Positions 8,123 through 29,574 of a stretch of 64,000 nucleotides of DNA are shown here, piece by piece. The position numbers and the translations under genes are program-made. Under the pieces are notes generated by a model that was not told where the DNA came from, ran no database searches, and saw only the letters and a list, made by a program, of their open reading frames with translations. This stretch comes from an uncultured Verrucomicrobiae bacterium (GTDB lineage: Bacteria > Verrucomicrobiota > Verrucomicrobiia > Limisphaerales > UBA11358), in assembly GCA_963830235.1 (NCBI GenBank), contig CAWHLR010000035.1:29838-93837 (forward strand), read 5' to 3'. The first letter of the stretch is position 1. Each line of letters starts with the position of its first letter.

Positions 8123-10000
8123 TTAATTCTCCTTCAGAAATTCAACCAGGCGGGACATGGATCGCTTCAGGTCTCGCTGCCTTCCTATCTGGACACCTTT
8201 TTTAATCTGAAGGCAAATATGATCGTAATTGGGTCCCTTTAATAGGTCATCATATTGCGAATAAATGTTTTTTGATTTGGGCAGTTGTATCCCCATCAGC
8301 AATTTTGAAATGGAATGTAGCAGAAGAAACGCATCCTCGATCATTTCAAAGGTGATTTCCTCGAACATCTCAACCGCATTATTACCTTTCGTGCAATACC
8401 ACTTTTCACAATAGCTGACGAACCGATTTTCAAACGCATCCTGAAAGGAAAAATCACTTTGAAGTTGGCGGGCAATCAATGCCGCTAACGTCCACTCCGC
8501 CGGCCCCTTGAAATCCTTCTGTTGTTTAATCAGCCGGTCACCGATACCGCGCCATCTGGCTTTACTGTCATAGGATTCCTCGATCATCTTTTTCAACCAG
8601 TAGGCAAATTTGCACCGGTTATGTGATGGGTCTTGGATTTCCGGAAAAATAACCGGGAAATACTTTCCAAAAATATCATTAGTTCCCTGTTGGCTGATGA
8701 ATGGGTTCTGCCTTAATACCGCCGCGATACAACGTGCGAGTTTATCGGCATCAAGCCAAAAATATTTCCGCTTGGCATCTTGTTCCTCTTTGCTGACAAC
8801 CTGTTTTTCACCCTGTTTCCTCAAAAGGTAATATTTTCTTTCAGAATCCTTCAGTTTCTCGGCGAAGAGTCTGTGAAAAAGTGTCACCATCATGGGGTGG
8901 TTTGACTTCAAATCGCGATTATCGACAGGATTTTGATTGTTACGCGCAATGGCGACTTCAGAAGATATATTGGCCGCATCCTTTTTCAGTTCGATGACGG
9001 TAACAAAAACTTGGGCATTGGGATTGGCGCCTTCATTTTCACAAAAGTAGCGGTCAATATTCATTACGGTCTGACAGCCGTTGCTTATGGAGGCTCGTTC
9101 CAAAAAAATATGGTCGTCATTGAGCGTTGCCTTGCTGCATTGCATGGTCACGCCATTATTGCACACGATGAACTGTTCGGGCTTCTGGCTGATGGTCATC
9201 CGGATTGCCTCGGCGATCTCCTTGCTGCGTTTCTTGACGTTTAGGTAACTGCGCACGTTCGAGGCAAAAAGCGCCTTCAACTTCTTTTCCTTCCTGTGGG
9301 CCTGAATAATCTCGTGAATATTTTTTAGAACGACCGAAGTAACAAAAACCTGACCATAGTCGAAGGTCAATTTAAGCGGCGACTCATGGAACTTGAGCTT
9401 GAATGAGCTCATTCCGGTCTGACCATCCAAGAATTCTTCGCCGCGCTCCAGAAGTTCCTCATTTGTAAAAAAGTCATAATCTTCCAGCTTTGCATTTTTT
9501 CGGATGCGTTCACGTTGTGGGCCACTAAAATGTTTTGGCGTCACGAAGTAATACCGTGGCGAGTAATGCTCCTGGGTGATCAGCATCTTTGCCCGCCGCC
9601 ATGCTGACCGTGCCGGTTCATGCAACGCTTCAGGCAGAGAATCTTCAAACAAATACTTATAAAATTGAGCGAATGTTTCGGTAGCTTTCGCCTCGTTGGC
9701 TGGTGATTTATTCCAGTTGCCCGCATCGTATTCGACCTGTCCAACCAAAACTTTTTTGCTTTCTTTATCCTGCCAGATGAAATCAACGCCGCAATCATTC
9801 GCCTCATCAAGCACACATTGATTTGCCTCATCGTAAGGAATGCCGACTTCCTGATGGAGGAACCAAATCGCGAGTGCCTGGGCATCGCCAAGCACCGAAT
9901 TCCCGGATGCACGCCCGGATTGAGTTATGATCCGCTCCAATTCCTCTTTCAGGAACTGGATGAGGTGATCAGTTTCATATTCTTGGCTGGCAAATGACAT
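8123..10000 (-). CDS. AIPR-family abortive-infection protein with an N-terminal nuclease-like domain
   Basis: FIVCNNGVTMQC and ISNGCQTVMNI fit the AIPR pattern. The N-terminus DCGVDFIW...VLVGQVEY resembles a PD-(D/E)xK core. ATG 10000 preferred; alternative start at 10045. GC is markedly lower than the flanks. Confidence 0.8.
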   Translation of the reverse strand: MSFASQEYETDHLIQFLKEELERIITQSGRASGNSVLGDAQALAIWFLHQEVGIPYDEANQCVLDEANDCGVDFIWQDKESKKVLVGQVEYDAGNWNKSPANEAKATETFAQFYKYLFEDSLPEALHEPARSAWRRAKMLITQEHYSPRYYFVTPKHFSGPQRERIRKNAKLEDYDFFTNEELLERGEEFLDGQTGMSSFKLKFHESPLKLTFDYGQVFVTSVVLKNIHEIIQAHRKEKKLKALFASNVRSYLNVKKRSKEIAEAIRMTISQKPEQFIVCNNGVTMQCSKATLNDDHIFLERASISNGCQTVMNIDRYFCENEGANPNAQVFVTVIELKKDAANISSEVAIARNNQNPVDNRDLKSNHPMMVTLFHRLFAEKLKDSERKYYLLRKQGEKQVVSKEEQDAKRKYFWLDADKLARCIAAVLRQNPFISQQGTNDIFGKYFPVIFPEIQDPSHNRCKFAYWLKKMIEESYDSKARWRGIGDRLIKQQKDFKGPAEWTLAALIARQLQSDFSFQDAFENRFVSYCEKWYCTKGNNAVEMFEEITFEMIEDAFLLLHSISKLLMGIQLPKSKNIYSQYDDLLKGPNYDHICLQIKKGVQIGRQRDLKRSMSRLVEFLKEN

Positions 10001-10136
10001 ACAATCAATTTTCTTTCGGTTTTCAGGTTCCCGTCGAAACACCACTCATCTTATTTTGGGATGATTGATTATCGTAAATGTCTGTTTCCACAATACAAAT
10101 AAAATCATTGGGCGAATTTTGAATTGGAAAAATTTT

Positions 10137-10308: not shown

Positions 10309-11832
10309 ATGCCCGTGCATTCCACACATCCTGATTATGACGCCAGCCTCTCGGCCTGGCTGCGGGCTCGCGATGTCTTTGCCGGTGAGGATGCCATCAA
10401 GGCCGCTGCTGAAAAATATCTGCCGCGTCTGGATTGTCAGGACGACAAGGAATATCTCGCCTACAAAAATCGCGCCTCCTTTTTCAACGCCTCGGCCCGC
10501 ACGGCGGATGGTTTCGTCGGCCTGATTTTTCGCCGTGATCCAACATTCAAACTGCCGGACACCGGCACCGGTGTAGGCGATGCGCTCACCGAATTTGTGG
10601 AAGATGCCGACATGTTGGGAACCAGCCTGACTGCCTTCTCGAAAAAACTGGTCACGGAAATTATCAATGTCGGTCGTGCCTGCACGCTGATTGACTGGAA
10701 CGAGGAAGCGGAGCAACGCGCCTATGCCGTTGCCTATTCCGCTGAAGACATCGTCAATTGGCACACAGAACGGGTAAATGGCCGCAACGTGCTGACGCTG
10801 GTCGTCCTCAAGGAAATCAGCAAAATGCCCGCTTCGGAAACTGATCCGTTCGTGCCTGATGAAATCCAGCAACTTCGCGTTCTGAAACTCGTCCCGCCGC
10901 AAACCAAAGCTGAAAACGCAAAAGCTGACTGGTCTTACCAGGTAGAAATCTGGCAGTTCCTTGCGGATGGCCAGAATGCAAGCGGCCCTCGCAATCGCGG
11001 CAAAAAGAAATGGAAATTGGTGGACTCCTTGACACCGCTGCGCCTGGGCAAACCTCTGCCGCTGATTCCCTTTGTCTTTCATGGTCCGCGTCACTCCTTG
11101 CCGGAAGTGGATAAAATCCCGCTGGCAGACATCATCGCCGTCAACCTCAACCATTACCGGCTCACAGCCGACTATTTGCATGGGATGCATTTCACCGCAT
11201 TGCCGACGGCCTGGGTGAGTGGATTTGACAAAAATTCTTCGCTTCGCATCGGCTCTAGCACGGCATGGGTCGCTGAGACGCCCGGCGCGACGGCTGGTTT
11301 TCTGGAATTTCACGGTCAAGGTCTGACGACCTTTGAACGGGCAATGGATCGTGATGAGCAACTCATGGCGGTGCTCGGCACACGGATGCTCGAATCCAAG
11401 AAGCGCGTTGGGGAGACCGCCGCTGCCATCGAACTCCGCCAGAGCGGTGAGAACAGCATTTTGAACACCGTGTCTTTGAGCATCAGCGCCTCGCTGACGC
11501 AAGTGCTGCGCTGGGTTTATTGGTGGAACTCCACCGAACCGATTCCTGATGCCATTGGTCCCGACCTTGTGCTCGCCAGCCTGAACACGGATTTCAGCAT
11601 CACCGGAATGTCGTTTCAAGAAATTACGGCACTGGTCGCCGCGTGGCAGGCGGGCGCCATTAGTCAGGCAACCATGCTCGACTTATTCCGCGCCGGTGAA
11701 GTTATCGCTCCTGGCCGCACGAATGAAGAAGAAATCAAACTGCTCGCCAGCGAGAAACCAACGAAGCCGCCGGTCGCGGTCAAACCGCCGGTGTCGGTGG
11801 CGACGACTGCAAACCCTCAACCGATAACCTGA
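10309..11832 (+). CDS. portal protein
   Basis: 507 aa, placed directly before the scaffold and capsid genes. Size, position and sequence pattern are consistent with DUF4055-type portals (from memory). Confidence 0.75.
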   Translation: MPVHSTHPDYDASLSAWLRARDVFAGEDAIKAAAEKYLPRLDCQDDKEYLAYKNRASFFNASARTADGFVGLIFRRDPTFKLPDTGTGVGDALTEFVEDADMLGTSLTAFSKKLVTEIINVGRACTLIDWNEEAEQRAYAVAYSAEDIVNWHTERVNGRNVLTLVVLKEISKMPASETDPFVPDEIQQLRVLKLVPPQTKAENAKADWSYQVEIWQFLADGQNASGPRNRGKKKWKLVDSLTPLRLGKPLPLIPFVFHGPRHSLPEVDKIPLADIIAVNLNHYRLTADYLHGMHFTALPTAWVSGFDKNSSLRIGSSTAWVAETPGATAGFLEFHGQGLTTFERAMDRDEQLMAVLGTRMLESKKRVGETAAAIELRQSGENSILNTVSLSISASLTQVLRWVYWWNSTEPIPDAIGPDLVLASLNTDFSITGMSFQEITALVAAWQAGAISQATMLDLFRAGEVIAPGRTNEEEIKLLASEKPTKPPVAVKPPVSVATTANPQPIT

Positions 11833-11841
11833 AACTGATTT

Positions 11842-12603
11842 ATGGCCCTGAAATACAAATACGCAACGAAGCAGGAAATTCCTGCTGAACATCAATCCCT
11901 TTATGTCGAACGCGACGGCGCTTGGATACTGGACGCCGATGGCATCACAGACAAATCCAAGTTGGATGAATTCCGCACGACCAACGTCGCGCTGATGAAA
12001 GAGCGTGATGACCTCGCCAAGAAGTTTGAAGGCATTGACCCGGATGAAGTCCGCCGGCTCGCCGATGAGAATCGTTCCCTGCGGACGGCAACATTGAGCG
12101 AAGACGCCAAGCGCGAAATGGATGCACAGTTGAAAACCACGAAGGCGGGTTATGAAAAGCAACTTACTGCCGTGACTTCTGAACGCGATGCGCTGCATGG
12201 TCGCCTGACGGCGATTCAGATTGATCAAGCCGTCGTGAATGAAGCAACCAAACGTGGTCTGCGCCCGACGGCGATTCCTGACATTACTTCGCGGGCGCGC
12301 ACGAATTTCAAATTAGTGAACGGCGTTCCTCAAGCTTTCGAGGCGGACGGCCAGACGGCCCGGATGGGCAAGGATGGCGTCACGCCGATGACTTTGGCCG
12401 AATGGGTGGATGCGTTGGTGTCCGACGCACCGCACCTGTTTGAAGCAAATGCTGGTGGCGGTGCCGCCGGCTCCGGCTCCGGTGGGGCTGGCAACCGGTC
12501 CGTGAAAAATCCGTTCCGAAAGGAAACGTTCAATCTCACGGAACAAATGAAAATTCAAAAATCCGATCCACAACTTGCGGCTCGCCTCAAGGCGGCTGCG
12601 TAG
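11842..12603 (+). CDS. capsid scaffolding protein
   Basis: 253 aa, charged and coiled-coil-rich, with a Gly-rich C-terminus. Located between portal and MCP. Confidence 0.6.
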   Translation: MALKYKYATKQEIPAEHQSLYVERDGAWILDADGITDKSKLDEFRTTNVALMKERDDLAKKFEGIDPDEVRRLADENRSLRTATLSEDAKREMDAQLKTTKAGYEKQLTAVTSERDALHGRLTAIQIDQAVVNEATKRGLRPTAIPDITSRARTNFKLVNGVPQAFEADGQTARMGKDGVTPMTLAEWVDALVSDAPHLFEANAGGGAAGSGSGGAGNRSVKNPFRKETFNLTEQMKIQKSDPQLAARLKAAA

Positions 12604-12626
12604 GATCACAAGCACAATTCTAAATT

Positions 12627-13637
12627 ATGGCTAAAACACAATTGGCTGACATCGTTGTTCCGGCGCAGTTCGCGCCGTATGTATTACAGCGCACGGCGGA
12701 GAAATCCGACCTGTTTCAATCCGGCATTGTCGTGCGAACGCCGGACTATGACGAACGCGCTGCGCAAGGCGGCAACCAGGTCAACATGCCGCATTGGAAT
12801 GACCTGACGGGCGACCGCCAGCCACTTTCCGATTCGTCACCGCTCGTGCCGGCGAAGCTCACGGCGGATCAGGACATCGCCCGCATCCATAACGACGGCA
12901 AGGCGTGGTCGTGGAATCACCTGGCAACCTTGGTCTCTGGCGATGATCCGGCGCTGGCGCTGGCCAACTTCATGGCCGATTACTGGAATCGTCAGAACCA
13001 ATACATGCTCATTAGCTCCCTGAAGGGTGTGTTCTCGGCGGCTTCGATGGTCGGCAACCTGTTGGCGATTCACAGTGAAAGTGTCGCCGCGCAAACGGCT
13101 GCGACCCGGCTCAACGGTGCAACCTTCGTGGATGCGACGCAAAAGCTTGGCGACCGTGGCGACCGGCTCGTGGCCGTGGCGATGCACTCGGCAACCGAAG
13201 CCGCGTTGCGGAAACTCGATCTGATTGACTTCATCCCGGACAGCCAGGGTGAAGCGCAAATCCGCACGTTCCAGGGCCGGCGCGTCATCGTGGATGACGG
13301 TTGTCCGTCGCGGGCGGGCACGACCGATGGCTTGGTCTATACAAGCTACCTGTTCGGCCCGGGCGCGTTCGGCATGGGCTTCGACGATCTGAACGGCGCG
13401 CCCGTCGAGGGTGGTTTCGGCACGCAAGGCTGCGAAGCGGCGCGTGACGCTCTCAACAGCGATACCAACCTGATCAACCGCCGCCGGTTCATCCTGCATC
13501 CTCGAGGTGTGAAGTTCACCAGCGCGAGCGTGGCGGGCGCAAACCCGACAAACGCGGAATTGGAAACGGCCGCAAATTGGGTGCGCGTTTGGGAAAACAA
13601 AAACGTCCCCGTCGTGGCGGTCACTCACAACATCTAA
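12627..13637 (+). CDS. major capsid protein (HK97-fold; resembles the N4-gp56/T7-like coat family)
   Basis: 336 aa. N-terminus MAKTQLADIVVPAQFAPYV.... Position after the scaffold fits a coat protein. Confidence 0.75.
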   Translation: MAKTQLADIVVPAQFAPYVLQRTAEKSDLFQSGIVVRTPDYDERAAQGGNQVNMPHWNDLTGDRQPLSDSSPLVPAKLTADQDIARIHNDGKAWSWNHLATLVSGDDPALALANFMADYWNRQNQYMLISSLKGVFSAASMVGNLLAIHSESVAAQTAATRLNGATFVDATQKLGDRGDRLVAVAMHSATEAALRKLDLIDFIPDSQGEAQIRTFQGRRVIVDDGCPSRAGTTDGLVYTSYLFGPGAFGMGFDDLNGAPVEGGFGTQGCEAARDALNSDTNLINRRRFILHPRGVKFTSASVAGANPTNAELETAANWVRVWENKNVPVVAVTHNI

Positions 13638-13688
13638 ACCAAAGGCGTGCCGGTTCGCGCCGGCACGCCACTTTTGAGAAAGAAATTT

Positions 13689-13916
13689 ATGGGCAAACTT
13701 CAACCTCGTAGTTTTGAGCGGATTCGTTCGGGTGAACAAATCCAGTATCCGACATACACCAACGTCGCGGCGGCGGTGGCCGCTGGTGTCACGGCGGCGA
13801 AGTTCCCGCGCCGCATCATTTACCTGTCTGCCGGCGGCACTGGTTCGGTTCCGTGCCTGGCCGTTTCGGACGGCACGAACTGGAAACAAGTCGCCATTGG
13901 CGCAAACGCCATTTAA
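13689..13916 (+). CDS. small head-module protein, hypothetical
   Basis: ATG 13689 inside ORF 13647..13916. 75 aa, co-oriented and directly after the MCP. Confidence 0.45.
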   Translation: MGKLQPRSFERIRSGEQIQYPTYTNVAAAVAAGVTAAKFPRRIIYLSAGGTGSVPCLAVSDGTNWKQVAIGANAI

Positions 13917-13927
13917 CCGCAGCCATC

Positions 13928-14128
13928 ATGGACAAATTGTTTCCCATTATACGGCGGCAGCGGCGTCCTCTGATTGTCGAGGAGTCCGTGCCGGACGGGC
14001 CAACAGCACCGCCTATTCCGATCAAGACCGAGCCGGTTCAATCCGTGATGACAACGCCACCGGTTGAACCGGCGGATGAACCAAAAGCCGACAATGCCAA
14101 AAGCATTTCCACAAGAAAAGCGCGGTAA
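13928..14128 (+). CDS. Pro-rich 66-aa hypothetical protein
   Basis: ATG 13928 inside ORF 13853..14128. Low-complexity sequence. It overlaps the next ORF, so coding status is uncertain. Confidence 0.3.
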   Translation: MDKLFPIIRRQRRPLIVEESVPDGPTAPPIPIKTEPVQSVMTTPPVEPADEPKADNAKSISTRKAR

Positions 14129-15008
14129 CTCACCCTGGACGCCACTGCAACGGCGCACTTGGCTGGCGGAACGTCGCCGCCGCTCGCGGCAAAATCATTT
14201 GCTGCCCGCGCCGGTGCTGGTGGCGGCTTTTCCCGACCTCGCGGTGTGGACGTGGGATTATCCCGACCCGGCTTACTGGTATGCCTATCATCAGCACGCG
14301 GTGGGCGATCCTTTTACTTACGACGACCGTGGCGCTGGGACTGACCGCCAGTATGCGCCGGACGGCGGGCAGTATCCGATGTTCATTGTTGGGTGTGATA
14401 ACGACGGGAACGAGATCACGGGGCGGAGCAATGCGGTTCGTCCTGAAGATGCGCTACCACCTGCCCCTGTCTTAGTTTCGCTGGGAACGGTCGCCGGCGA
14501 TACTACCTGGCGGGCAGTCGCCCCGATAGCTGTGGATGATTGGCAATTTTGCACGACAGATAATGCTTTTGACCCTCAAATTAAAAGTTTTGATCAATGG
14601 GTGTATGAGGCGGACGCGCCGGACACAGATTTCGTCAATATAAATTCCACGACTGCCACCGTCACAGTGGACTTTGCTTATTGCGCTGCCCGCTATCGGG
14701 TCGGGGCAATCTGGTCGTCTTGGACGGGAGTCTTCGATGCAACTGTGATCGCGCCGCCGACACAGTTGGTTTTATCCTCGGATGGCCACGGGCATTTGAC
14801 CTGGACCTGCAACTTCATCGTGGACACGGCCTTCATCATCCAGCATTCGGAAGATGAGGTCAATTGGAGCGATTACGATGCGCAGGACTGCGACAAATTT
14901 TATCGGGACTCCAGCGGATATGCGGGTTTCTACCGACTCGCGATTGGGGATGATGATGGAAACGCCGCGCCGCCCTACTCGAATGCGGTGTATTCGGATG
15001 GTTTGTAA
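14064..15008 (+). CDS. hypothetical structural protein; possible Ig/FN3-like decoration protein; start uncertain
   Basis: 314-aa ORF with a repeated PAPVLV segment and beta-rich W/Y/D composition, in the head module. No motif recognised. Confidence 0.45.
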   Translation: MNRRMNQKPTMPKAFPQEKRGNSPWTPLQRRTWLAERRRRSRQNHLLPAPVLVAAFPDLAVWTWDYPDPAYWYAYHQHAVGDPFTYDDRGAGTDRQYAPDGGQYPMFIVGCDNDGNEITGRSNAVRPEDALPPAPVLVSLGTVAGDTTWRAVAPIAVDDWQFCTTDNAFDPQIKSFDQWVYEADAPDTDFVNINSTTATVTVDFAYCAARYRVGAIWSSWTGVFDATVIAPPTQLVLSSDGHGHLTWTCNFIVDTAFIIQHSEDEVNWSDYDAQDCDKFYRDSSGYAGFYRLAIGDDDGNAAPPYSNAVYSDGL

Positions 15009-15013
15009 TTTTT

Positions 15014-15568
15014 ATGGCGCTCACCTTGATCAAAGAGGACGGGACCGGCAAGGCCGACGCCAACGCATACGCGGACGTGGCCGATGGTGACGCCTACCAC
15101 GCCGGGCATCTGTATGCCACGGCGTGGACCGGCGCGAGCGCGGATCAAAAGGCCGTGGCATTGGTGATGGCGTCGCGGTTGATTGACGCGGAATTTCAAT
15201 TCAACGGCACGCGGACCACGGCCGGACAAAGCCTGCAATGGCCGCGGGCGATGTGCCCCGAGCCGGACAATGTCCATGTGCCGATCTCGGTGCTGTTGCC
15301 GATTCCGTATGAATACGTTGAATATGACAAGGTGCCGAAAGCCGTCGTCCAGGCGACGTGTGAAATGGCGCGGGAACTTTTGATTGCCGACAGGACGGTC
15401 GCCCCAGCGGGTGAAGGCTTGAAATACCAGAACGCCGGCACGACGCAGACGGGTTACGACAAAACCGACCGGCGCCCGGTGCTTTCACAAGTCGCGCAAG
15501 TGATGCTGGCGAAATTTGGATCCCAAATCAGCGCCAAAAGCGGCGCGGTGCGACTGGTGCGGGCGTGA
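15014..15568 (+). CDS. head-tail adaptor (DnaT-like / gp6-like family)
   Basis: 184 aa. N-terminus MALTLIKEDGTGKADANAYADVADGDAYH... fits the DnaT_2-type phage adaptor pattern. It is the last co-oriented gene of the module. Confidence 0.55.
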   Translation: MALTLIKEDGTGKADANAYADVADGDAYHAGHLYATAWTGASADQKAVALVMASRLIDAEFQFNGTRTTAGQSLQWPRAMCPEPDNVHVPISVLLPIPYEYVEYDKVPKAVVQATCEMARELLIADRTVAPAGEGLKYQNAGTTQTGYDKTDRRPVLSQVAQVMLAKFGSQISAKSGAVRLVRA

Positions 15569-15632
15569 AAATGAATATCGGTATGGATCAGTTTAAAAAT
15601 CCTAAACGCTACGATGCGAGCGGAACGGCTCG

Positions 15633-16097
15633 TTATTTTTTTGCTGCTGCTGCCGCTTTCTTGCGGTTTTCAATGCTTCCGTCAATAAAAGTAACCGACG
15701 GAAGCATAAATGGGGGCATGGGGCCTCTTCCTGTGTTAAATAATATTAGCTCTCGTGCGGCTCCAAATAAAACAGCAGGCCCATTACATGTCACCATGTC
15801 AATTATTGCAGACTCCTCAACGCTCTGGTGGACTTCAAAAAAACCTAAAAGTTCTGCATCAATCACATAGGGGCAAAAAGTGCTGCCCTCGCTGGGTCGA
15901 ACCATCAATCTTAGAACAACTTTCCAAAGTCTATTATTATCCTCGTTTTTAGCTGTCTCAACTTAAGTTGTAATGTTCGAGTGGCTTCCTGCCATCAACT
16001 TAACCAGATCATCCTGGGACGCAACATCGGGAATGGTGGCCTTAAAAGAAAAATTGGTAACGAAAGATTGCTTAAGAATTAGAGGTGACAACTGCAT
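15633..16097 (-). pseudogene. SecB-like chaperone of a TAC module, interrupted by an in-frame TAA (15963-15965)
   Basis: Not in the ORF track. ATG 16097 is preceded by AAGGAG and overlaps the antitoxin stop. By-eye alignment to E. coli SecB: NFSFKATIPDV vs DISFEAPNAPHV, WKVVLRLMVRP vs YEVVLRVTVTA, and CNGPAVLFGAARELI..GRGPMPPFMLPSVTF vs CPNILFPYARECI..SRGTFPQLNLAPVNF. Confidence 0.7.
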
Positions 16098-16578
16098 AAT
16101 TCATCTCCTTTTTAATCTGTTTGACATTGTGATATTTTGCGCCCGAAAACAGACCGGCGTAAATTTCAATGCCCCGGGGTATGTTCCATGGAATTTGGTG
16201 TATCCACTCACAGCCAACGTTGTTTGGCGTTAGATGAATATGCGCACGAAAATTCAACGCGAATGCCAACTTAACAATGGTTTCCATGGTGCAATTTCCG
16301 CCCCTAAAAACTTTTGTTAGAAATTGTTTTGAAACATCCGCCCGCTCCGCAAATTGGGTCTGATTTAAGCCGCGATTATCCATTGCCTGCCAGAGTTCAT
16401 CAGAAAAAGTTTCTTTAAAATAGGCCGTTTGATACGGAAGTGTCTGTCGCGTCTTATTCAGATTTTCATCAAGTTTTATGCTCCGTTCAACGGCTGGCAG
16501 CGGCTCCAGTCCGAGGTTGGCTGTGGTAATATAGCTCTCTGCGCTCCTGGGCGCGTTCAATGTCTTTTTTGTGGTCAT
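16072..16578 (-). CDS. XRE/HigA-like antitoxin with a C-terminal extension
   Basis: HTH segment GLNQTQFAERADVSKQFLTKVFRGG, followed by a ~60-aa tail. It lies between the toxin and the SecB-like gene. The N-terminal boundary is uncertain because the ORF overlaps the toxin by 92 nt. Confidence 0.7.
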   Translation of the reverse strand: MTTKKTLNAPRSAESYITTANLGLEPLPAVERSIKLDENLNKTRQTLPYQTAYFKETFSDELWQAMDNRGLNQTQFAERADVSKQFLTKVFRGGNCTMETIVKLAFALNFRAHIHLTPNNVGCEWIHQIPWNIPRGIEIYAGLFSGAKYHNVKQIKKEMNYAVVTSNS

Positions 16579-16909
16579 GGCGATTTTGGGCTATAAATCC
16601 GTGAGTGCAAACGACTATGGAATTATTATTCTTGTCAAAAAACCAAAAAACCCTCGCACCGCCTTTTGCGCAAAATTCCCAAAGCGGTTTGGCCTGTTTT
16701 CCGTGTAGAGGTTTTGTTTTTTGTCCATTTGGCACTATCCCGTGTTTCTTTGCTCTATCAAATAATGCAATTAATTGGTTATAATCTTCAGCACGAGTCA
16801 CGTCGATCTCTTCCAAAAACGATTCCACATCATACTTCGGCTGGTCGCAATCCATGAACAGCAATCTGATTGCGTTTCCACCGTCACCTGTATATTCGAC
16901 CAGTTTCAC
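16487..16909 (-). CDS. HigB/Gp49-like (RelE superfamily) toxin
   Basis: RVFWFFDKNNNSIVVCTHGFIAQNRHDHKKDIERAQERRELYY fits the Gp49/HigB pattern. Confidence 0.65.
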   Translation of the reverse strand: MKLVEYTGDGGNAIRLLFMDCDQPKYDVESFLEEIDVTRAEDYNQLIALFDRAKKHGIVPNGQKTKPLHGKQAKPLWEFCAKGGARVFWFFDKNNNSIVVCTHGFIAQNRHDHKKDIERAQERRELYYHSQPRTGAAASR

Positions 16910-17062
16910 GAAAAAGTAAACTCAAAAGATTACCATTAACGTATTGCAGATAAACCACTTGCTGGAATGTGAAAAAGATTTCATCAAATTTACGGTTTAT
17001 TTTAGACTCCAGACATCGCCAGTGATACCCACTTTCATCGCTGGTGTCACGCGCAATGTCTA

Positions 17063-17689
17063 TCACGCCAACGGCCAAAGTTTTTCTTTTGGCAACCGGC
17101 GCTCAATCACGCTGCTTGACACTGCAAATTTCCGGGAAATCGGTTTCGCCAGATATTGCATGTGCGCCTCGTCTTGAAGCTGGCTGCGCGGCATCCCGCA
17201 TTGCTCGGCGATTTTGATGGCGGCTTCCAATTCCTGACGCAACGCAACGGGCGGGACCAAAAATCGTCCGGCAAATTCATTCGCATGATATTCAAGAAAA
17301 CTATACTCCTTCTCCGGCATATCGCGCATGAATGCAATCCACTCTTCTAACGATCCTTGGGGTATCTGGCTGAAAACCGCCTTGTGCAAAACGAAGTGGC
17401 CCAACTCGTGCGCGATGCTGTATCGCAATCGGTTGGTGTAGCGTTCGTCCATGTATTGATTCTGGTCAACCACGATGGTTCGCCAGTCGCCTAGCAGCAG
17501 CGCATCAACGTCGGCTTCCTCTTTGAGTTTTGAAATTGGCCGAATCTCCAGCCCCAGCTCAAATTCAACCACCGACAACACATCTATGGGAATGACATTT
17601 GACGGCCAAACGTGTGCTCTAAATTCATCCGCCTGCCGCCAAATATCTTGCGGGGCGATGAATGGAGCCTTGAAATTTTGAGGTTCCAT
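17063..17689 (-). CDS. ImmA/IrrE-family zinc metallopeptidase
   Basis: HEXXH motif (IAHELGHFVLH). Located immediately downstream of an XRE HTH gene. Confidence 0.85.
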   Translation of the reverse strand: MEPQNFKAPFIAPQDIWRQADEFRAHVWPSNVIPIDVLSVVEFELGLEIRPISKLKEEADVDALLLGDWRTIVVDQNQYMDERYTNRLRYSIAHELGHFVLHKAVFSQIPQGSLEEWIAFMRDMPEKEYSFLEYHANEFAGRFLVPPVALRQELEAAIKIAEQCGMPRSQLQDEAHMQYLAKPISRKFAVSSSVIERRLPKEKLWPLA

Positions 17690-17698
17690 TCGCCCTTT

Positions 17699-18076
17699 TC
17701 AGCCTTCCTTGATCTTTTGCAAAACTTTCCGAAGTTCGTCCTCGGTGGGTTTTTGGCCGCGCAACGTGCGGAAGAATGCGGGCAATTTTTTTACCAATTC
17801 GGCATCGTCCATCAAATCCTGCGGAATCATGCCACGGTCGGCGGCGGCCAAATCAAATAACTGATACCATTCATCGCTTCCCTCTTTCAACCCAAGCGCC
17901 TCCGCATATCTGGTGAGAATCAGGCGGTCTTGCGGCGGAATCATGCCGCCCCGTTCCATCCGGCTGATGTTGCCCGGATCGGCTCCGGCGGCTTCACAGA
18001 AGGCCCGCAGCGTAATTCGCTTTTCAGTCCTAAGTGCCTTGAAATAAGAGGCAAATGTTGTTTTCGTTTCATTCAT
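17699..18076 (-). CDS. XRE-family HTH transcriptional regulator
   Basis: ITLRAFCEAAGADPGNISRMERGG is a helix-turn-helix segment. Paired with ImmA. Confidence 0.8.
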   Translation of the reverse strand: MNETKTTFASYFKALRTEKRITLRAFCEAAGADPGNISRMERGGMIPPQDRLILTRYAEALGLKEGSDEWYQLFDLAAADRGMIPQDLMDDAELVKKLPAFFRTLRGQKPTEDELRKVLQKIKEG

Positions 18077-18161: not shown

Positions 18162-21006
18162 TTATTCCCAATCTGGGTTCTTGAATCCGAGCGTTTTGGC
18201 GTTTTCCGAGACGGCGCGCTTGGTCTGGTCTTTTGCGCCGTTGGGGAAAGTGGCCTGAATCTCGACGCTGACTTTTACCTCCGCGTTGGGGTCGGCAACG
18301 AGGACGGCGATGATTTCCTCGGCGATTTGAACGAGGCGCATTTTCGCGGTGGAGGCGTTGACCGTGACGTTGCCGTGGAATGATTGCGGCTTGGGCGTGC
18401 CGATGCCTTCCATGCCGGGAAGCTGGCCGGGTGTGCCGGTGGTTCCCTTGCCGGGCGGCGTGGCTGTCGGCAATTCCGGCGTGCCGCCGCCGGTGGCTGG
18501 CTTGGCCGGTGGCGGCAGGAGGCTGGCCGCGTAGCTGGTGGCAGCCTGCGGCTCGATGAGCAGCAGCGTGTCGTCGAGTTGCACGTTGGCGTCGCCGAAT
18601 TTGAATCCGTCAAACTTGCCTTCGTGTTCGCCGTAGGCGGTGCCGAAAAAGTCGCGCGTGCCTGCGCCTTTGACGATGGCTTGCTCCAGCACGCCGCGAT
18701 TTTTCAGGCGCGGCAAATAAAGATAGCGCAGCGTATCTTCCCAAAAAGCCATCGCCGACGCGGCGGGCTTGTCTTCTTTCCAATAAAGTTCCTTGAGCCG
18801 GTCGCGCAAGATGGATGGGCGACCAGGTGGCGATGACCAATTCTTGATCCAGGCAGACGCGCTCGATTTCCGCGCCAAGCGCCGCGCCGCTGGTGTTCAG
18901 CGGGAAAGACTCGACGGTGGCTTGCGTGGCCGTGGATGATGCCTGCGACGGGCAGAGCAGCCAGCGATAACATTCGCGGGCCGCTTTCGGCACGACTTCT
19001 TCGGCGGTTTTCAGTTCCTTCTCGGCCTGTTTCTTTTGGACGAGGTCGATGTTCAAGCGGCTGGCCTCGACATCATCCACGATGGATTTCCACGCCAGCG
19101 CCGTCGCGGACACAATCACGTAACTCGTGCCAGCGACGCCTGATCCGGCGCGAGAAAAATCAGCCGGTTGCCGCGATAGCGCGGTTTGGTGCCGTTGCTG
19201 CGCGTGAACGTCCAGCACTTCATCGAACGCCAGCCGCGGTTCCTGCCCGGCTGAATAAAATTGCTCCGGCGGCAGACATACCAGCCGCAAGCCGGTGTCA
19301 TCGGGCACATCGCCGTGCGGGGTGAAAATGTGGACGCCATCAAAGAATGACGCGCCGGCGGTGAGTTTCTCGCAACGCCTCGGCGATTCGGCCGCGCACA
19401 TCATTCGCGTCGTCGAACCGGCGTCTTCCGGTCCTCCATTTCGCGGCGGAGATTGGCGCGGGTGTCGAACCAGAAGCGCGTCGTGTCCTGCGCCTTGTCG
19501 CCGGATGGTGTTCAGGTAATGCAGCCGGTCGGCGAGCCGGTTCAGCGCGTCGGAATAGGTCGACGAAGCCTGCCCCGGCTGGAAGCAGCCCAGCAGGACG
19601 CGGGCGCGTTCCAGGCCGCGTGTGCCGCGGCTTTGTGCGCCACGGACGGACGGAGCGGTGCCAAGGAAAATGGTGCGGGCGACACGGCGCGCGGCTTGCG
19701 ACTGCGCCGAATCGCGGCTCTTTGGTTTCCAGTTCGGTGGTCTCGGCGCGCTCGCCGTCAATGTCGCCTTCAATGACGGCATCCCAGCCGGTCCGCAAAT
19801 AGTAGGTCAGTTCGTTGCGCGTACTGCCGTCATAAAGCGGCAGGCTGCCGGGCAGAATCATCAAGTCCTTGTTGTCGTCCTTCCACAGGCGATAGATGAC
19901 TTTCGCCATGAGTTTCAGCACGCCGCGAGTGCGCTGGAATCCATCGATGCGTCGTCCAATCTTCATAGAGCCGGTCAAAAACCTCCGGGTGGATCGGATA
20001 AGCCTGCATCAGCCGGTCAAAGTAGCGGGCCTCCTGCGTTTCGGACGGCAGTTTCGCGCCTTCGGCAACGTAGGCGTCGGCAAATGCGCGGCAAACCGCG
20101 TCGCGGTCTTTTCATCGCGGATCGGTTCAAACAGGCGGCGGCGCACGATCTCAAACGCTTCCTCGGTGGCGACGGGTTTCCAAAGCGCCTGCACGCGGCC
20201 AAAAGTCTTTTCCAGCGCGCGCAACGCCGCGACGCCTCGTTGACTGCCGGCCTCAACATCGGATTCCGGCAATGAGCCGAGCACCATGGCGTTCGGCACC
20301 AGCTTCACCGCTTCGGTGAGCGCCTGGACGAATGACAGATTGCTGTCGTAGGTGCCGCCGCTGAGTGACTGGCCATTCGAGAATTGCCGGATGTAGGCGA
20401 CCAATTCATCCACCAGCACGACGCACGGCGCATAGACTTTCCAGCAGCGTCCGCAAAACGTCCTTGCCGGGTGACGTGCCGTTGGCGTCGGCCTCTTTGA
20501 CCAGCGCGAAGGCTTCTTCGCCGCCAAGTTGCCATGCGAGTTCGCCCCAAAGCGTGTGGATGGCTTGCTTGCCATGCTTCCACGGCTGGCCGGGGGCATG
20601 GGCAGTGCCGTCCAGCACGGCGACTCGCGCCTTGGGCACGTCCATGAGTCCCGCCTGATCCAGCAGAGCCGGAATGCCGGGCAAGTCTTTCAAGCGCGCA
20701 TTTGCGCGTGGCGAGGTGATAGACCGCCAGCATGGTGTGCGTCTTGCCGCCGCCGAATGCGGTTTGCAGTTGGATGACTGGATCGCCGCCTTGCCGTTAA
20801 GCGCGCTGGGCGACTGACGTAAGCAGCAGGCGCATGCCCTCGGTGATGAACGTGCGCTCGAAAAATGCCGCCGCGTCCTGATATTCCCGCGTGGCTTTGC
20901 CGGTGTGAACCGCCGTGATGTCGGCGGCAAACTCGGACTGTTGAAACGTGCCTTCCAGAACGTCCGCGTGCGGGACGGCGATTTCTCTCCAAGGTTTCAG
21001 GCTCAT
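18162..21006 (-). pseudogene. DUF499 (BrxC/PglY-like) P-loop ATPase, disrupted by at least 13 frame changes plus an in-frame TAA
   Basis: Recognisable segments are spread over all three frames across six ORF-track fragments: [30 protein letters not shown], Walker [35 protein letters not shown], and LAWKSIVDD. Confidence 0.8.
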
Positions 21007-23941
21007 AAAGATTATTCTCTATTTCGGCAATCATGTCGAACCCGGCAAGTCTTGTTCGGCGGGTTTCGGTGCGGCTGGCTGCTGCGGATTCGATGCCGGT
21101 CCAACTGGTGATGAGTTCGTTATAGGCGCGGGCGTCCTCGGCTTGGCCGAGACGTTCGCAAAGCGTGTAGAGGCGATAGGCAAGCTGGCGCACGGCCTCG
21201 GCCTTGCCGCCGAGCGCGGCCAGCAACGCGCCGGACGCGGAATCGCCGCCTTGCCTGAAGGCGCGGATGAGCTGGTGCAGCGCTTCCCAGACGGGCATGC
21301 GCTTGTCGGTGCTCGGGTCCCAATCGGTCGGATATTCCGACCATTTGAGCAGGCGGACTTTACCGCCGCCGCTTTGGAGGACACCGGCTTCTTTCACGCC
21401 GTCAACACTCGTGCCTTTGGCGCGTGCAAGTGTGTCTGCATCGCCAAATGCGCCTTCATTCCAGCCGTGTTGCTCAAACCAATGCAGGCAAAATTGCGTG
21501 TCGGCGTCGAAATCATCTTCGCCGAGGAAACGGTTGATGAGTTGAAGTGCGGTGCGGACACTCATTGGCGTTCCATCGGCTTCAAGCACTGCGGCGTATT
21601 TGGAAAATACCGCCATGCCAGGGCCGATGATGGCCTGCGACAAATCCACCGGCGCGACTGGAGAATGTTCGCCGCCCGCGCCTTTGGTCATTTCGTCGAG
21701 CGCCTCGGGCAGGACTCCGTTCAACTCGTGAATGAACTCGCGCCGCGAAACGGTTGCGGCATCCGCTGCGCGCTTACGACACACGAGAACGATACTGGAT
21801 GCGAGCGCATTGTTACCCATGCCTATCATTCTGAACTCTTGCTCGCTGCGCAGAGGCCATGTTCCGACAATCGCAAAGCCTGCTCGCAAGACAGCAGTGA
21901 GGAATGTCTCCCAACCAGTCGAAGATGTGCCTGCATCGTCATTCGTTTCTGATTGTTTGAAGGCATAGTAGATTGTAACTGGCCCCTCCGGGTGTGCTAG
22001 TTCGACGAGGTTATGGATCACCTTCGTCATGCCATCGAGGAAAAAGGCTTCAGCTTTTTCCTTGGTTCCGTGTCGGTAGGGTGTTGCAACCAGTTCTTCA
22101 GTTTTTGGAACAGCTATCGTGGCAAGGGTTGTTGGGAAAAATGAGCGCAACGCTCGCCGAAGCCAAATATAGAAAAAATCCGATAGGTCGGCGTAGCCGA
22201 TGTTATCGTAGTATGGCGGGTCGGTTGAGATAAACTTGAGTCGAGAAACAGTTTGGGTTTGGGCGTCTGCTTGCGTGGCGAAACCGGCTGCTGCCGGTGA
22301 AAGTTTTTCGATGCAGTCAGCCACATATTCTGCTGCTGGTGCAAATCCACCAACGGTATCAGCAAGAATAGCCGCTTCTGGATAATCCCAAGACATAGGG
22401 ATAGCCTGTTTCCCAAAAAGGTTCATTACCTTCTGGTTGCTCGGCACCCAGCGGGTGACGGAATTTGAGAAATCGGCGCAGCGATTAACCACGAATGCCA
22501 GATATAAGCTCACAGCTTCACCATAGGCAGTAGCGCCACTACCTCCAGCATCGAGACCTTTCTGGTCATCTTTCATTCCGGCGGCAATTGCATTAGATCG
22601 GACGTAATCCCTCGCCTCGGCAACGAGGTCGCTAAAGGTTGTCAACGCTACCAACTGTCGCGCTGTGAAAAGGTCGCCGAAAGTGTTAAGTCCGTAGTTC
22701 GGCGTCTTGAAATCTCGTGGATTGTCAGGTAAAGCCATGTCTGGCTTCCATGTTGGCTTTGCTGTGGCCGCAATCTTTTCCGCTTCCGGTGTCGGTGAAA
22801 GATAAATTCGCCCTCGCGTTCCCTCGGCAACAATAGCCATCAGTTTTTGTCCCATGCGGCCAGCCTTGCCCTCCGAACGAATGTGGTCATAGCCGATTGG
22901 TGCATCTGACATAAGGCAGCGAAAGGCTTTTCGCTTTCCTGCTGTTGTGCCTTCTTCCGCTTCTGGCGGTGGCGTTCCAATTTTCACTTTGAAGCTGTAA
23001 TGGCTTCCATCAATGATAGGCTGAACGTAAGACTCTTTGCCCTCTTTGCTGGCAAGGATAAAATTTGAAATAAGTGGCACACTTATCTGCGAGAAAGCTG
23101 GGCTGGGGCTATTGACCGTTCGCGCCCAAAGCCAAGCGATAACTGGAAGCTTTTGACCAACGAGAGGTTTTAGATCGGGACGCTCGCGAGCCATATCGCC
23201 GGTTATCTCCACTGGTGGATAAAGGTGGCCGATTCTTTTGATCGCTTTTTTACGCATCCATACTCCGCAGCGACGAACATCCTCCGCAAGTCCAGTTGCT
23301 CCGGGCCATTCCTGCGCGATAGATAAATGACCGCCGCGTTTGTCGGTCGGGAGCGGTCCGACGGGTGCGCGCCCGGCGAATTTGGGTGGAATTTCAATCA
23401 TTGCTTTGTTAAGCATGACTGCAACGGGGTTCAAATCCGTGGCGTATGATTCCAAGCCGAGTCGTTGCGCCTCAAGTGGGATGGCTCCCCCGCCGGCAAA
23501 TGGGTCGTGAAAAGCTGGTAGCTTTTCAGGATCAAATAACTCTTTGGCCTGTGGATGATCTTTGTTGAGTTCGCACACTTCCCGCCATGAGCGGCGAATC
23601 TCGGCGCGTGCGCGCGATAGAACTTCCTCATTCGTGCTGTTCTCCCACTTCACAAGGTCTTCGATGATTGTGAATAGGCGTTTTCTTTCAGCCGCCGCCT
23701 CCTTTTTGTTTTTACCGTATTTGAAACCTCTGCCAATGTTCGTGCCTGGGTCGTTGACCAACTGTGCGAAGATTACAGCCCGCGCTGCCGCGAGTGGACG
23801 CCGCGCCCACCAAAGATGTATTCCCCGAGGGTGCGCGCCGATGCCTGGCATTTTCTCGTAAGCGCACGCCTCGTTAATCGCATCCAATGGCAGCGCGACT
23901 TCAATGAGCTTGCGCGGGGATTTGATGGGATGGGCGAACAT
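20690..23941 (-). CDS. DUF1156-type DNA methyltransferase; true C-terminus probably near 21030-21090
   Basis: [15 protein letters not shown]...[20 protein letters not shown] is the DUF1156 signature. [10 protein letters not shown] is the DPPY catalytic motif. The last ~105 codons of the ORF are an out-of-frame read across the DUF499 start. Confidence 0.8.
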
Positions 23942-23947
23942 CAGGAA

Positions 23948-24613
23948 TTATGGTTGAGCCGGATTTGCTGGAGGTTGGTCCAACGAACCAGGGTAGGCGT
24001 GTTCGATCTTGCCGATCAGAAAATCGGCGAAGCTGCCAAGCACTTGCAGGTTGTTCGGGTTAAACGTCGGTTGGTGGGCCCGATTGCGCTTCAGGTTTTT
24101 CAGCGCAGCCCACGTTATGAAATCAGCGGGCAGTTCGCCTTTGCTGTAACCGGGGAAAATCCTTTTAATTTCAGGGAGATAGCCAATGGCATGAAGCGGC
24201 GTGGTGAAATGGCCTTGGTTGCCGAAGTGAAGCCACCCTTGAAAGCTATTCCCATCCCAGTGCAGGGCAAAGAAGTCCTCGAAATTGTGGTAGGAGAAAA
24301 GGAAATCAGGAATGCCGGCAGTTTTGAGCGCGTAATGGTCGGCGCAATGATGGTCATTTCGGTGATAAAGATCAAAATCCGCCCAGATTTGGATGGAGGC
24401 CTTTTTATTGGCCTTCCGGGTTTGGTTGTAGCGCCTTTTCAGTTTTCCGAAGGCTCCGTCCTTCACAATCACTTTTTCCGGCACGATGAAGCGCAATGGA
24501 GTCTCGAAGGTGCCATCCGCTAGTGGCTGCTTATCGAGAAAGCTTTGTAAACGCTGTAAATAGGCCCACTCGGACTCTCCTTCGCAGACGATGATGTAGC
24601 GGATACAAGGCAT
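23948..24613 (-). CDS. RloB-like protein (AbiLii-like)
   Basis: N-terminus YIIVCEGESEWAYL fits the RloB CEGE motif. ATG 24613 preferred over TTG 24625. Located directly downstream of the AAA ATPase. Confidence 0.65.
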   Translation of the reverse strand: MPCIRYIIVCEGESEWAYLQRLQSFLDKQPLADGTFETPLRFIVPEKVIVKDGAFGKLKRRYNQTRKANKKASIQIWADFDLYHRNDHHCADHYALKTAGIPDFLFSYHNFEDFFALHWDGNSFQGWLHFGNQGHFTTPLHAIGYLPEIKRIFPGYSKGELPADFITWAALKNLKRNRAHQPTFNPNNLQVLGSFADFLIGKIEHAYPGSLDQPPANPAQP

Positions 24614-24621
24614 GATTTTGT

Positions 24622-25909
24622 TCAAAGTGCCGGATGGGGGATGCCGGAATAGTATCCGGCAAGATATTGCTTTCGGAAATTAGTTACGTTGCGGATATCT
24701 TCGCCATCTTTTTTGGCATCGACCAGACGGCGAATCAGGGTGCCGTTCGCTTTCGTTTTCCTGACAAGGGCAATCTCAGAAAGACGTAGAATTGAGTCGT
24801 CCAGGATGTCGGTGTTGTGCGTGGTGACGATCAACTGCGCGCCCTTCGGGTTATGGCGGCGTTTTTTGAACAGCAACACGATTTCCCGCATGAGCAAGGA
24901 ATGGAGAGAGCTTTCGAGTTCATCCACGATAAGCACGCCGCCGGTTTTGAGAGTGTGCAGGATCAGGCCAACAAGGCCGGCCAGGCGCTGGGTGCCGGCG
25001 GACTCGTTTTTGATGAAATCGAGCAGAGCGGGATTGCCGGCGACATCCTGATGGGTCGCGGTGATTTGCACGGCATGTTTGATTTTCGTGACGGGATTGA
25101 ACTTGGTGATGCCAATCGGCTCCGGCTCGTTAGGAGCCAGCTCCCGTTGGAAGATATCAATGGCGGCGATATCAATATCCAGTCGGCGGACGACATCCGT
25201 GATCTCCCGAAGGGCGGCCTTCTCATCCCCGCCCAGTATCGAAGCGAGGATCTCGACAGAAACCGGGAGCGGAATCGGCTGTTCGTTTGTGTAATACTTC
25301 AGGCTTTCCGTGAAATAGACGAAGGCGTTGCGCAGGTCTTGATTAAGTCCGGAGTAGCCGTGACCAATGCGGTGGAGAAATAGTTTGGTTTGCCGCCCCT
25401 CACCGTCGGAGCACTCCACACGCAAAATTTCGGAAAGTTTTAGCTCCGAATAGGTGGCGGAAAGGACCTGGGGGGAAAACTCGGCTTTCAGGTTCTGGAT
25501 CTTGTAGATCGGCTTCCCGTTTTTCAGCAAGGCCTCTTCCAGAATTTCCATCGCGTTAAAACCAACCCGGTATTCAAAGCGCTCACCGCCCATGAAAAAC
25601 TCCACCACGAAGGTGGTATGCGAAAACTTGGGGTTGAGCAAGTTGGGCTCATAGTAGTTGGCCAATGGACCGCCCCCGCGGAGCAACAGTTTGAGCATCC
25701 CAAATGCCTTGAGGATGTTGGTCTTGCCGGAGGCGTTGGCACCAAAAAACGCCATGCAGGGAACAAGCCGTTGTTTGGTAGCGGTTTCGAGGAATGGCAT
25801 GATTTCCTGTTCCTTGGTAACCATTGGGAGCCTTCCCTTCGCCGTAAGTAAAATCCAGCTTGAGTTCCAGTATGGACCGGAAGTTTTGAATGAAGAAGGA
25901 AGATAACAT
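24622..25909 (-). CDS. AAA_21-type ATPase (RloA/AbiLi-like), with one frameshift near 25815
   Basis: The true N-terminus FIQNFRSILELKLDF lies in ORF 25649..25909. Walker A GANASGKTN, LIVDELESSLH and VTTHN lie in ORF 24622..25824. Confidence 0.8.
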
Positions 25910-28900: not shown

Positions 28901-29574
28901 AGATCCCAGCCGGCGGCGCAAAGTTTTTCCTGAAGGTCATCGTTGCGCGCCATCTGGTCGAGCCGGACGATGAGATGGTCAATGTCTTCAAAGGGATTGC
29001 CGCTGGGAGTGGCAGCTTCCAAGTCTTTGGTGAAGACGCGAAATTCGAGGCCGAATTTCTCAAACATTTCATCGCGCCACTGCTCGACCAGGCTGCCGGG
29101 GGCGACGATGACGATGCGGCGGGCATCGGCGCGCATGATGAGTTCGCGGATGTAGAGGCCCGCCATGATGGTCTTGCCCGCGCCGGGGTCGTCCGCCAGG
29201 ACGAACCGCAACGGCTGGCGCGGCAGCATGGATTCATAGACCGCCGTGATCTGGTGCGGCAACGCTTCCACGTTGGACGTGTGAACGGCCATCATGGGAT
29301 CGAACAGAAAGGCGAGGTCAATGCGCTTGGCCTCGACCACCAGCTTGAAAGTTTCGCCGTCGCCGTCGAATGACCACGGGCGTTCGGTGGTCGCAACGGT
29401 GAGGTTCGGTTCGTCGGCGCGATTGATGAGGCGTTCCTTGAGCGTGCCGTCGGGAGTTTTGTAAAGCACCTGCACCGTTCCCTCGGCGATGGGCACAACC
29501 GCCACCACGCTGCCGATGACGGCAGGCTCAAGTCCCGTAAGCGGGACGCCCGGTTTGATGTCTTCAATTTTCAT
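25998..29574 (-). CDS. SNF2-family helicase fused to a DUF3883-like C-terminal domain, with one frameshift near 27527
   Basis: [22 protein letters not shown] and [11 protein letters not shown] lie in ORF 27490..29574. ORF 25998..27551 continues the protein (AIRYGD / GEDVRAKL) and ends with the DUF3883-like RHIEVKGR...ITRNE. Confidence 0.85.

Follow-up and report, generated by a model that had tools for sequence, protein, structure and literature searches.

A predicted HigB/HigA/SecB-type toxin-antitoxin-chaperone operon with a single-base stop in its chaperone gene in an uncultured Verrucomicrobiae bacterium

We analysed a stretch of 64,000 nucleotides (positions 29,838 to 93,837 of contig CAWHLR010000035.1, assembly GCA_963830235.1; hereafter the window) from an uncultured Verrucomicrobiae bacterium, with a focus on three minus-strand genes between positions 15633 and 16909. 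Judged by their sequences, they make up a genuine tripartite toxin-antitoxin-chaperone (TAC) operon, which belongs to the HigB(Gp49)/HigA/SecB-TA type. Its SecB-like chaperone gene is interrupted at codon 45 by an in-frame TAA, while an independent and otherwise base-identical contig carries CAA (Gln) at the same codon; the stop is thus a single-base lesion that is private to this record and of very recent origin, rather than a pseudogene of long standing. On balance, we lean towards a real, recent, strain-level loss-of-function allele in an already decaying defence island, an error in the consensus sequence being the principal alternative.

Operon architecture and products

The toxin gene (16487–16909, minus strand) has a GTG start and a TGA stop and encodes a 140-aa HigB/Gp49-like protein of the RelE superfamily, the antitoxin gene (16072–16578, minus strand) starts with ATG and encodes a 168-aa XRE/HigA-like protein, and the SecB-like TAC chaperone gene (15633–16097, minus strand) comprises 154 codons and is broken at codon 45. 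All three genes are co-directional and tightly packed in the order typical of TACs, with the antitoxin open reading frame (ORF) overlapping the toxin ORF by 92 nt and the chaperone frame by 26 nt. The overlap of toxin and antitoxin (16487–16578; 74 nt in the related contig L001) is kept across the family and is free of window-specific substitutions. The chaperone ATG at 16097 is preceded by a Shine-Dalgarno sequence, AAGGAG (16105–16110, minus strand; 7 nt spacer), which is conserved in L001, and the frame closes with its own terminal stop, TAA, at 15633–15635. Because of the premature in-frame TAA at 15963–15965 (minus strand), whose variant base is window position 15965, an ORF listing yields a 44-aa N-terminal and a 91-aa C-terminal piece. 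A preliminary description of this DNA, made from the sequence alone, had set out the minus-strand series of toxin, antitoxin and 154-codon ORF, the start codon behind AAGGAG, the overlap with the antitoxin end and the TAA at codon 45, and we confirmed each of these at its coordinates; its interpretation of the locus as a TAC module is likewise supported. As a result of the 92-nt overlap, public gene calls omit either the toxin or the antitoxin in nearly every relative: L001 and L004 lack a toxin call, and L012 lacks an antitoxin call.

Pfam cut-offs were exceeded by all three products (Gp49, HTH_3 and SecB). The joined chaperone product, read across codon 45, scored 31.1 bits against SecB (PF02556; cut-off 26), and 17 intact full-length homologues of 153–161 aa were retrieved, ranging from 94% to 35% identity (E values from 6e-90 to 7e-16). 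A profile of this family matched the H. influenzae and E. coli SecB structures 1fx3, 1qyn and 5jtl in the PDB at E values of about 1e-5. The structure was modelled with AlphaFold2 on P0001, a homologue 94% identical to the joined product and used as its stand-in, together with the 17-sequence family alignment. The model reached a predicted local distance difference test score (pLDDT) of 88.5 and a predicted template modelling score (pTM) of 0.79, and displayed the SecB topology b1-b2-b3-b4-a1-a2, with strands at residues 6–20, 40–50, 57–68 and 77–89, a long helix at 95–122 and then a C-terminal helix. When compared to the PDB with Foldseek, its top 19 matches were all chains of SecB or of Rv1957 (5mtw, bound to a chaperone addiction (ChAD) peptide), with a probability of 1.0 and template modelling (TM) scores of 0.56–0.73. 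The SecB-like nature of the third ORF, proposed earlier from an alignment to E. coli SecB, thus holds by Pfam, PDB profile and predicted fold. Codon 45 lies in the middle of strand b2 of the P0001 model, and a 44-aa truncated product, judged on this model, cannot form the SecB fold. All NCBIfam SecB equivalog cut-offs were failed by the chaperone (37.8 bits vs 143 for NF004392, the best of them; 27 vs 102.8 for TIGR00809), and the PADLOC model PD-T4-9_C, which describes the CmdTAC chaperone, gave a weak match (19.5 bits, E = 2e-4). No second, complementing chaperone copy was found in the 64-kb window.

The antitoxin scored 30.5 bits against HTH_3 (cut-off 23) and had 52 homologues, one of them from a Verrucomicrobiae metagenome-assembled genome (MAG). 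Its AlphaFold2 model, built with 22 homologues, contained a confident helical helix-turn-helix (HTH) core at residues 31–113, while residues 1–30 and 114–168 had pLDDT values below 50; the protein has an N-terminal extension besides its C-terminal tail. The 55-residue tail (residues 114–168; 16075–16239, minus strand) contains six aromatic residues (W125, W131, Y140, F144, Y149, Y161) and, counting His as basic, eight basic and three acidic ones. The alignment of the antitoxin family is invariant at C123 and W125 and nearly so at H127 and Y149. ChAD elements have been described as C-terminal extensions that are disordered and variable and that carry SecB-binding motifs with many aromatic and basic residues (PMC5105189), and in the ChAD of an E. 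coli HigA, spaced conserved aromatics slot into pockets of the chaperone (bioRxiv 10.1101/2024.02.24.581848). The predicted disorder and the aromatic- and basic-rich composition of residues 114–168 match these descriptions, suggesting a putative ChAD in the part of the antitoxin where the preliminary description had proposed to look for one. A PDB sequence search with the antitoxin returned generic XRE HTH matches only, and an exact-product look-up found no contig.

The toxin scored 28.9 bits against Gp49 (PF05973; cut-off 23.9), which places it in a recognised type II toxin family; the TAC toxin of M. tuberculosis has been described as a close relative of Gp49-like toxins (PMC9098466). In comparison to 19 homologues, it retains 16 of 16 invariant and 34 of 34 nearly invariant family positions, H72Q being its sole departure from the 85% consensus. 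Seven amino acid changes within 16580–16909 belong to the window lineage and are also present in the intact-chaperone allele of L012, described below (E36D, P40A, A62G, H72Q, S85A, K108Q, S110R). Polarised substitutions were 6 non-synonymous and 1 synonymous on the toxin's own branch, compared to 4 and 12, respectively, on three sister branches (Fisher p = 0.019), and the pairwise ratio of non-synonymous to synonymous rates (dN/dS) was 0.23–0.26, compared to 0.04–0.07 in pairs without the window. This excess of amino acid changes would fit an attenuated toxin. The changes are few in number and their positions are mostly variable, position 108 being K, T, Q, G or R across the family. The idea that K108Q kills the toxin was dropped, because position 108 varies in the family and because the equivalence of K108 to the catalytic K95 of M. 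tuberculosis could not be established. The suggestion in the preliminary description that the toxin may be dead is not supported, since all family-invariant residues are kept, though in the presence of excess amino acid changes. A PDB sequence search with the toxin gave spurious PPR-repeat matches only, and the toxin family profile matched nothing in the PDB.

Sister allele and origin of the stop codon

The chaperone gene is intact in all 19 relatives examined. Residue 45 is Gln in 12 of 17 chaperone homologues and Lys in 5 of 17, with Arg and Asp also seen once each. Codon 45 reads CAA in L001, one of the closest DNA relatives, and the window differs by a single C-to-T change that turns CAA (Gln45) into TAA. 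The dating of this change rests on L012, an independent 2,489-bp contig from the Logan assembly of run ERR11630400, which is identical to window positions 15486–17974 at 2,488 of 2,489 bases and without gaps; the sole mismatch is C vs T at 15965 (gene strand). Toxin, antitoxin, upstream intergenic region and M78 peptidase gene are the same in both alleles, and P0125, the 154-aa protein encoded on L012, equals the joined window product with Q45, including the lineage-specific S11. In a protein cluster look-up, the 44-aa truncated product was recorded from the window's own contig (165,582 bp) alone, in a cluster that also holds P0125. JGI metagenome contigs scanned with a 41-mer of either allele yielded the known C-allele contig only. 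Apart from the stop, the chaperone gene has a dN/dS of 0.08–0.12 vs its relatives, indicating purifying selection. Without outgroups, the window branch of this gene carries 5 synonymous and 3 non-synonymous unique changes, the stop among them; polarisation by outgroups leaves 1 synonymous and 2 non-synonymous (Y11S and Q45 to stop). No decay was seen in the chaperone gene beyond the stop, and no compensating change was seen in the toxin, the antitoxin or the promoter region. The same C-to-T change, at 15960–15967, turns CTCAAG into the palindrome CTTAAG.

Several observations argue that the stop is a natural null allele. One single-nucleotide variant (SNV) per 2.5 kb is ordinary strain-level variation, the comparison with L012 is free of indels, and no split genes were seen in the 30–64 kb part of the window. 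An error at 15965 would thus be a substitution in an assembly that has no indels vs L012 and no broken genes outside the island. Within the island, random error does not account for the pattern of breaks in the neighbouring defence genes HmaA and HmaC, and homopolymer runs of four or more are absent at the three closely placed junctions (one in HmaA, and those in HmaC near 19700 and 18805). Since the disruptions cluster in this island, real decay is favoured over random error. If the null allele is real, the cells would tolerate loss of the chaperone through a weakly expressed or attenuated toxin; attenuation would fit the surplus of amino acid changes in the toxin of this lineage, which also counts in favour of a natural allele.

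An alternative explanation, which we consider possible but hold more tentatively, is that the T at 15965 is an error of assembly, consensus or polishing, or else a minority variant promoted into the consensus, and that the chaperone is intact (CAA) in the cells and the module fully functional. Position 15965 is the only base at odds with the independent assembly over 2,489 bp, and the T allele is known from the window's own record alone. The nearest representative genomes of the lineage are all MAGs, so that the source is probably also a MAG, in which local consensus errors occur. In addition, the toxin-antitoxin pair was toxic without its chaperone in every TAC tested (PMC5105189; bioRxiv 10.1101/2024.02.24.581848), and a real null allele that lacks compensation in cis should therefore be counter-selected. 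Other points that weigh against a natural null allele are that the Hma frameshifts could stem from local mis-consensus of mixed strains, and that the toxin keeps every family-invariant residue, its excess amounting to seven substitutions only, all common to the intact allele. Moreover, the fold was predicted for the 94%-identical homologue and not for the window's own repaired chaperone, and the binding of the ChAD to the chaperone, the toxin activity and the anti-phage role are all putative, being drawn from analogy.

The remaining explanations concern decoding of the stop, the state of the whole module and the identity of the third gene. Programmed read-through, an ochre suppressor tRNA or an alternative code with TAA = Gln would allow the full-length chaperone to be made, and the homologous residue is Gln, the meaning of TAA in some alternative codes. 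However, the otherwise identical contig L012 carries CAA in the same context, which rules out read-through or recoding as a designed feature; among the fates of the stop considered in the preliminary description, read-through thereby falls, while a sequencing error and a recent null allele both remain. Relatives have CAA or AAA at this codon, no recoding signal surrounds the site, and the 64-kb window holds no tRNA gene and hence no suppressor tRNA. TAA also terminates the antitoxin gene, the chaperone gene itself and 27 of the 83 long stop-to-stop frames in the window, and an alternative genetic code was rejected as neighbouring genes terminate at TAA. TAA followed by G is an efficient terminator in E. 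coli, and decoding in any form is highly improbable. We also find it very unlikely that the whole module is an old dead remnant, with an inactive toxin and three ORFs persisting by chance. Such a remnant would account for the adjoining decayed Hma genes and for the non-synonymous excess of the toxin on the window lineage, including H72Q and K108Q at well-conserved positions. Yet neither the toxin nor the antitoxin ORF is shortened, all invariant residues are in place, position 108 is variable in the toxin family, the chaperone has been under purifying selection, and an intact allele with identical toxin and antitoxin exists in L012. The least credible reading of all is that the third gene is a housekeeping export SecB of the host that merely lies beside a two-gene HigBA pair. 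It would agree with the family profile matching canonical SecB (1fx3, 1qyn, 5jtl) and not retrieving Rv1957, but the protein falls far under all NCBIfam SecB equivalog cut-offs, its gene overlaps that of the antitoxin by 26 nt, the two move together between unrelated genomic surroundings, and the GC content of the TAC region (0.47) is lower than that of its flanks. In a published survey, all SecB-like sequences found in Verrucomicrobia are reported to be part of TAC or antitoxin-chaperone (AC) systems (PMC3581621), and the synteny with the toxin-antitoxin pair refutes a housekeeping role in practice.

Relatives of the module and resemblance to characterised systems

The three-gene order is present in at least 12 independent metagenome contigs (seen in L001–L012 and L094–L097), and its synteny is maintained down to about 73% nucleotide identity and in several unrelated genomic contexts. 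In the window, the TAC lies between a block of portal, major capsid protein and DnaT_2 genes and a set of defence genes (CapH/CapP-like, Hma, AbiL); this position between a capsid element and a defence island, pointed out in the preliminary description, recurs in related elements. In L001, L002, L006, L007 and L094–L097, the same TAC faces the same DnaT_2 gene in convergent orientation, again where this capsid block ends, while the cargo beyond it differs from that of the window and consists of GmrSD and type I restriction-modification systems. More distant TACs adjoin a Bub-like ubiquitin-like system (BubE, ThiF/JAB, E2-like) with SocA and SIR2, an IS1595 element or an AbiJ-like gene. Judged by this synteny, the TAC module is mobile and defence-associated, and its place beside a variable defence hotspot is fixed. 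Earlier work had already reported TAC and AC systems in Verrucomicrobia and in horizontally transferred regions (PMC3581621). A scan of the GTDB representative genomes based on the chaperone alignment led to no confirmed relative, IMG/VR yielded no match to P0001 or to a 25-mer that covers the SNV, and no GenBank phage matched the 2.5-kb region.

Among characterised TACs, HigB1-HigA1-SecB-TA of M. tuberculosis (Rv1955-Rv1956-Rv1957) shares with the window the toxin-antitoxin-chaperone order, a Gp49-like toxin of the RelE superfamily, an HTH antitoxin with a disordered, aromatic and basic C-terminal extension, and the SecB fold (Foldseek probability 1.0 and TM scores of 0.58–0.67 to Rv1957 with its ChAD peptide in 5mtw). 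In contrast, identity of the modelled chaperone to Rv1957 is only 13–16% in the structural alignment, the chaperone is nearer to canonical SecB by sequence, and the antitoxin tail has neither similarity to the M. tuberculosis motifs WHRLSSYR and WARHISVR nor a C-terminal Val-Ala degron. The 92-nt overlap of the toxin and antitoxin ORFs, the Verrucomicrobiota host and the premature chaperone stop are further differences. HigBAC of E. coli NT1F31, an anti-phage TAC of a prophage, is similar in that one operon encodes HigB, HigA and a SecB-like protein and lies at a variable defence locus within a phage-derived element, and in both systems the toxin-antitoxin pair is expected to be toxic without the chaperone. 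Its ChAD relies on spaced conserved aromatics, and in the window W125 and Y149 are conserved 24 residues apart; however, the NT1F31 ChAD has 96 residues compared to about 55 in the window, and the two are likened by description. Whereas the trigger (lambda gpV) and the defence function were demonstrated for NT1F31, the role in the window is assigned by analogy. CmdTAC (PD-T4-9) of E. coli is comparable in its use of a SecB-like chaperone as sensor, in its defence-island or prophage context and through the weak PD-T4-9_C match, but its toxin is an mRNA ADP-ribosyltransferase and not a Gp49 RNase, and the window's toxin and antitoxin have no PADLOC match. Canonical SecB of E. coli and H. influenzae has the same fold and length as the chaperone, gives the best Foldseek and PDB-profile matches and belongs to the Pfam family whose cut-off the chaperone passes; the latter differs in failing the NCBIfam equivalogs and in being embedded in, and mobile with, a toxin-antitoxin operon.

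By analogy with characterised TACs, the toxin would act as a ribosome-dependent mRNA endonuclease that is neutralised by the antitoxin, and the ChAD-like tail would make the antitoxin unstable or prone to aggregation unless it is held by a SecB-like tetramer. TACs of E. coli prophages defend against phages, with the chaperone sensing tail or capsid proteins (bioRxiv 10.1101/2024.02.24.581848; PMC11618068). In a similar manner, phage structural proteins may compete for the chaperone in the system described here, so that the toxin would be freed and the infection aborted. Within its Verrucomicrobiota genome, the TAC is cargo of a mobile element, placed where the capsid block meets the defence island.

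It seems unlikely that all of the following hold at once: that the TAA is real, that its cells tolerate a natural chaperone-null TAC, and that in verrucomicrobial elements the TAC is the conserved anchor of a defence hotspot placed behind a capsid block without tail genes. If the null allele is real, a Gp49-type TAC would not be lethal without its chaperone in its native setting, perhaps because of an attenuated toxin (H72Q, K108Q and others), and the locus would provide a natural test of the lethality of chaperone loss outside over-expression systems. If the TAC is such an anchor, the capsid genes of its own element would have as their immediate neighbour a SecB-like protein that senses structural proteins. 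The operon also exemplifies an annotation problem in which a single base hides a whole gene, as the gene caller of the source record gave only the 44-aa fragment. Overall, a verrucomicrobial HigB(Gp49)/HigA/SecB family, fixed at the end of a capsid block beside swappable defence cargo, is added to the catalogue of TACs, and none of these findings overturns current understanding.

Flanking regions and neighbouring genes

The capsid block (10309–15568, plus strand) comprises a DUF4055 portal gene, a Gp13-like major capsid protein gene (12627–13637) and a DnaT_2 (head-tail adaptor-like) gene (15014–15568, plus strand; Pfam PF20557, 89.5 bits), which ends the block and is convergent with the TAC; no tail genes follow. 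The recurrence of this block together with the TAC in L094 and L095, there with other defence cargo behind it, looks like a defence hotspot at the point where the capsid genes of a prophage or satellite-like element end. A terminator-like GC-rich hairpin (15616–15633, unstranded; a plus-strand stem followed by a T run) sits where the chaperone and DnaT_2 genes converge. It is a consensus match only; five terminator-like matches were found, and shuffled sequences would give 2.6 ± 1.7. Over the whole of 15400–17200, promoter and terminator matches did not exceed the shuffled expectation. Upstream of the operon, the intergenic region 16910–17062 (minus strand) is the presumed promoter or operator site; it is conserved with L001 and L006 up to about position 17005 and is identical in L012, and the promoter scan found no sigma-70 consensus site in it upstream of the toxin.

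On the minus strand beyond the TAC follow the CapH/CapP-like HTH and M78 pair, the decayed Hma system and an AbiL pair. The M78 peptidase and HTH pair (17063–18076, minus strand; Pfam Peptidase_M78 and HTH_31) lies directly upstream of the TAC and matched the PADLOC models capP (49.6 bits) and capH (18.8 bits). In L012 the TAC is accompanied by the M78 (ImmA/IrrE) gene and by as much of the HTH gene as the contig covers (to 17974), and homologues of the pair have consecutive accessions in one Verrucomicrobiota MAG. HmaC (Hma AAA+ ATPase; 18162–20930, minus strand) is a multiply frameshifted pseudogene with junctions near 20600, 20100, 19950, 19700 and 18805 and at least six collinear pieces in different frames, which match profile positions 102–191, 184–303, 301–352, 353–437, 434–724 and 717–940; positions 1–101 were not found. 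The HmaB methylase gene (20690–23941, minus strand) is intact and encodes 1083 aa, about 120 aa more than the profile. HmaA (SNF2/DEAD helicase; 25998–29574, minus strand) consists of two ORFs, 27490–29574 corresponding to profile positions 2–676 and 25998–27551 to positions 677–1171, with the frame change near 27528 in GACCGGC. An AbiLi/AbiLii-like pair (23948–25824, minus strand) separates HmaB from HmaA and looks like an insertion in the Hma operon. The DapL encoded elsewhere in the window, from which the Verrucomicrobiota host was assigned, has at most 88% aa identity to its best matches, which come from uncultured Verrucomicrobiae, Limisphaerales and Pedosphaera MAGs. On the other side of the capsid block, an AIPR/AbiU-like abortive-infection gene of low GC content (0.46; 8123–10045, minus strand) sits a short way upstream of the portal gene and is encoded on the other strand.

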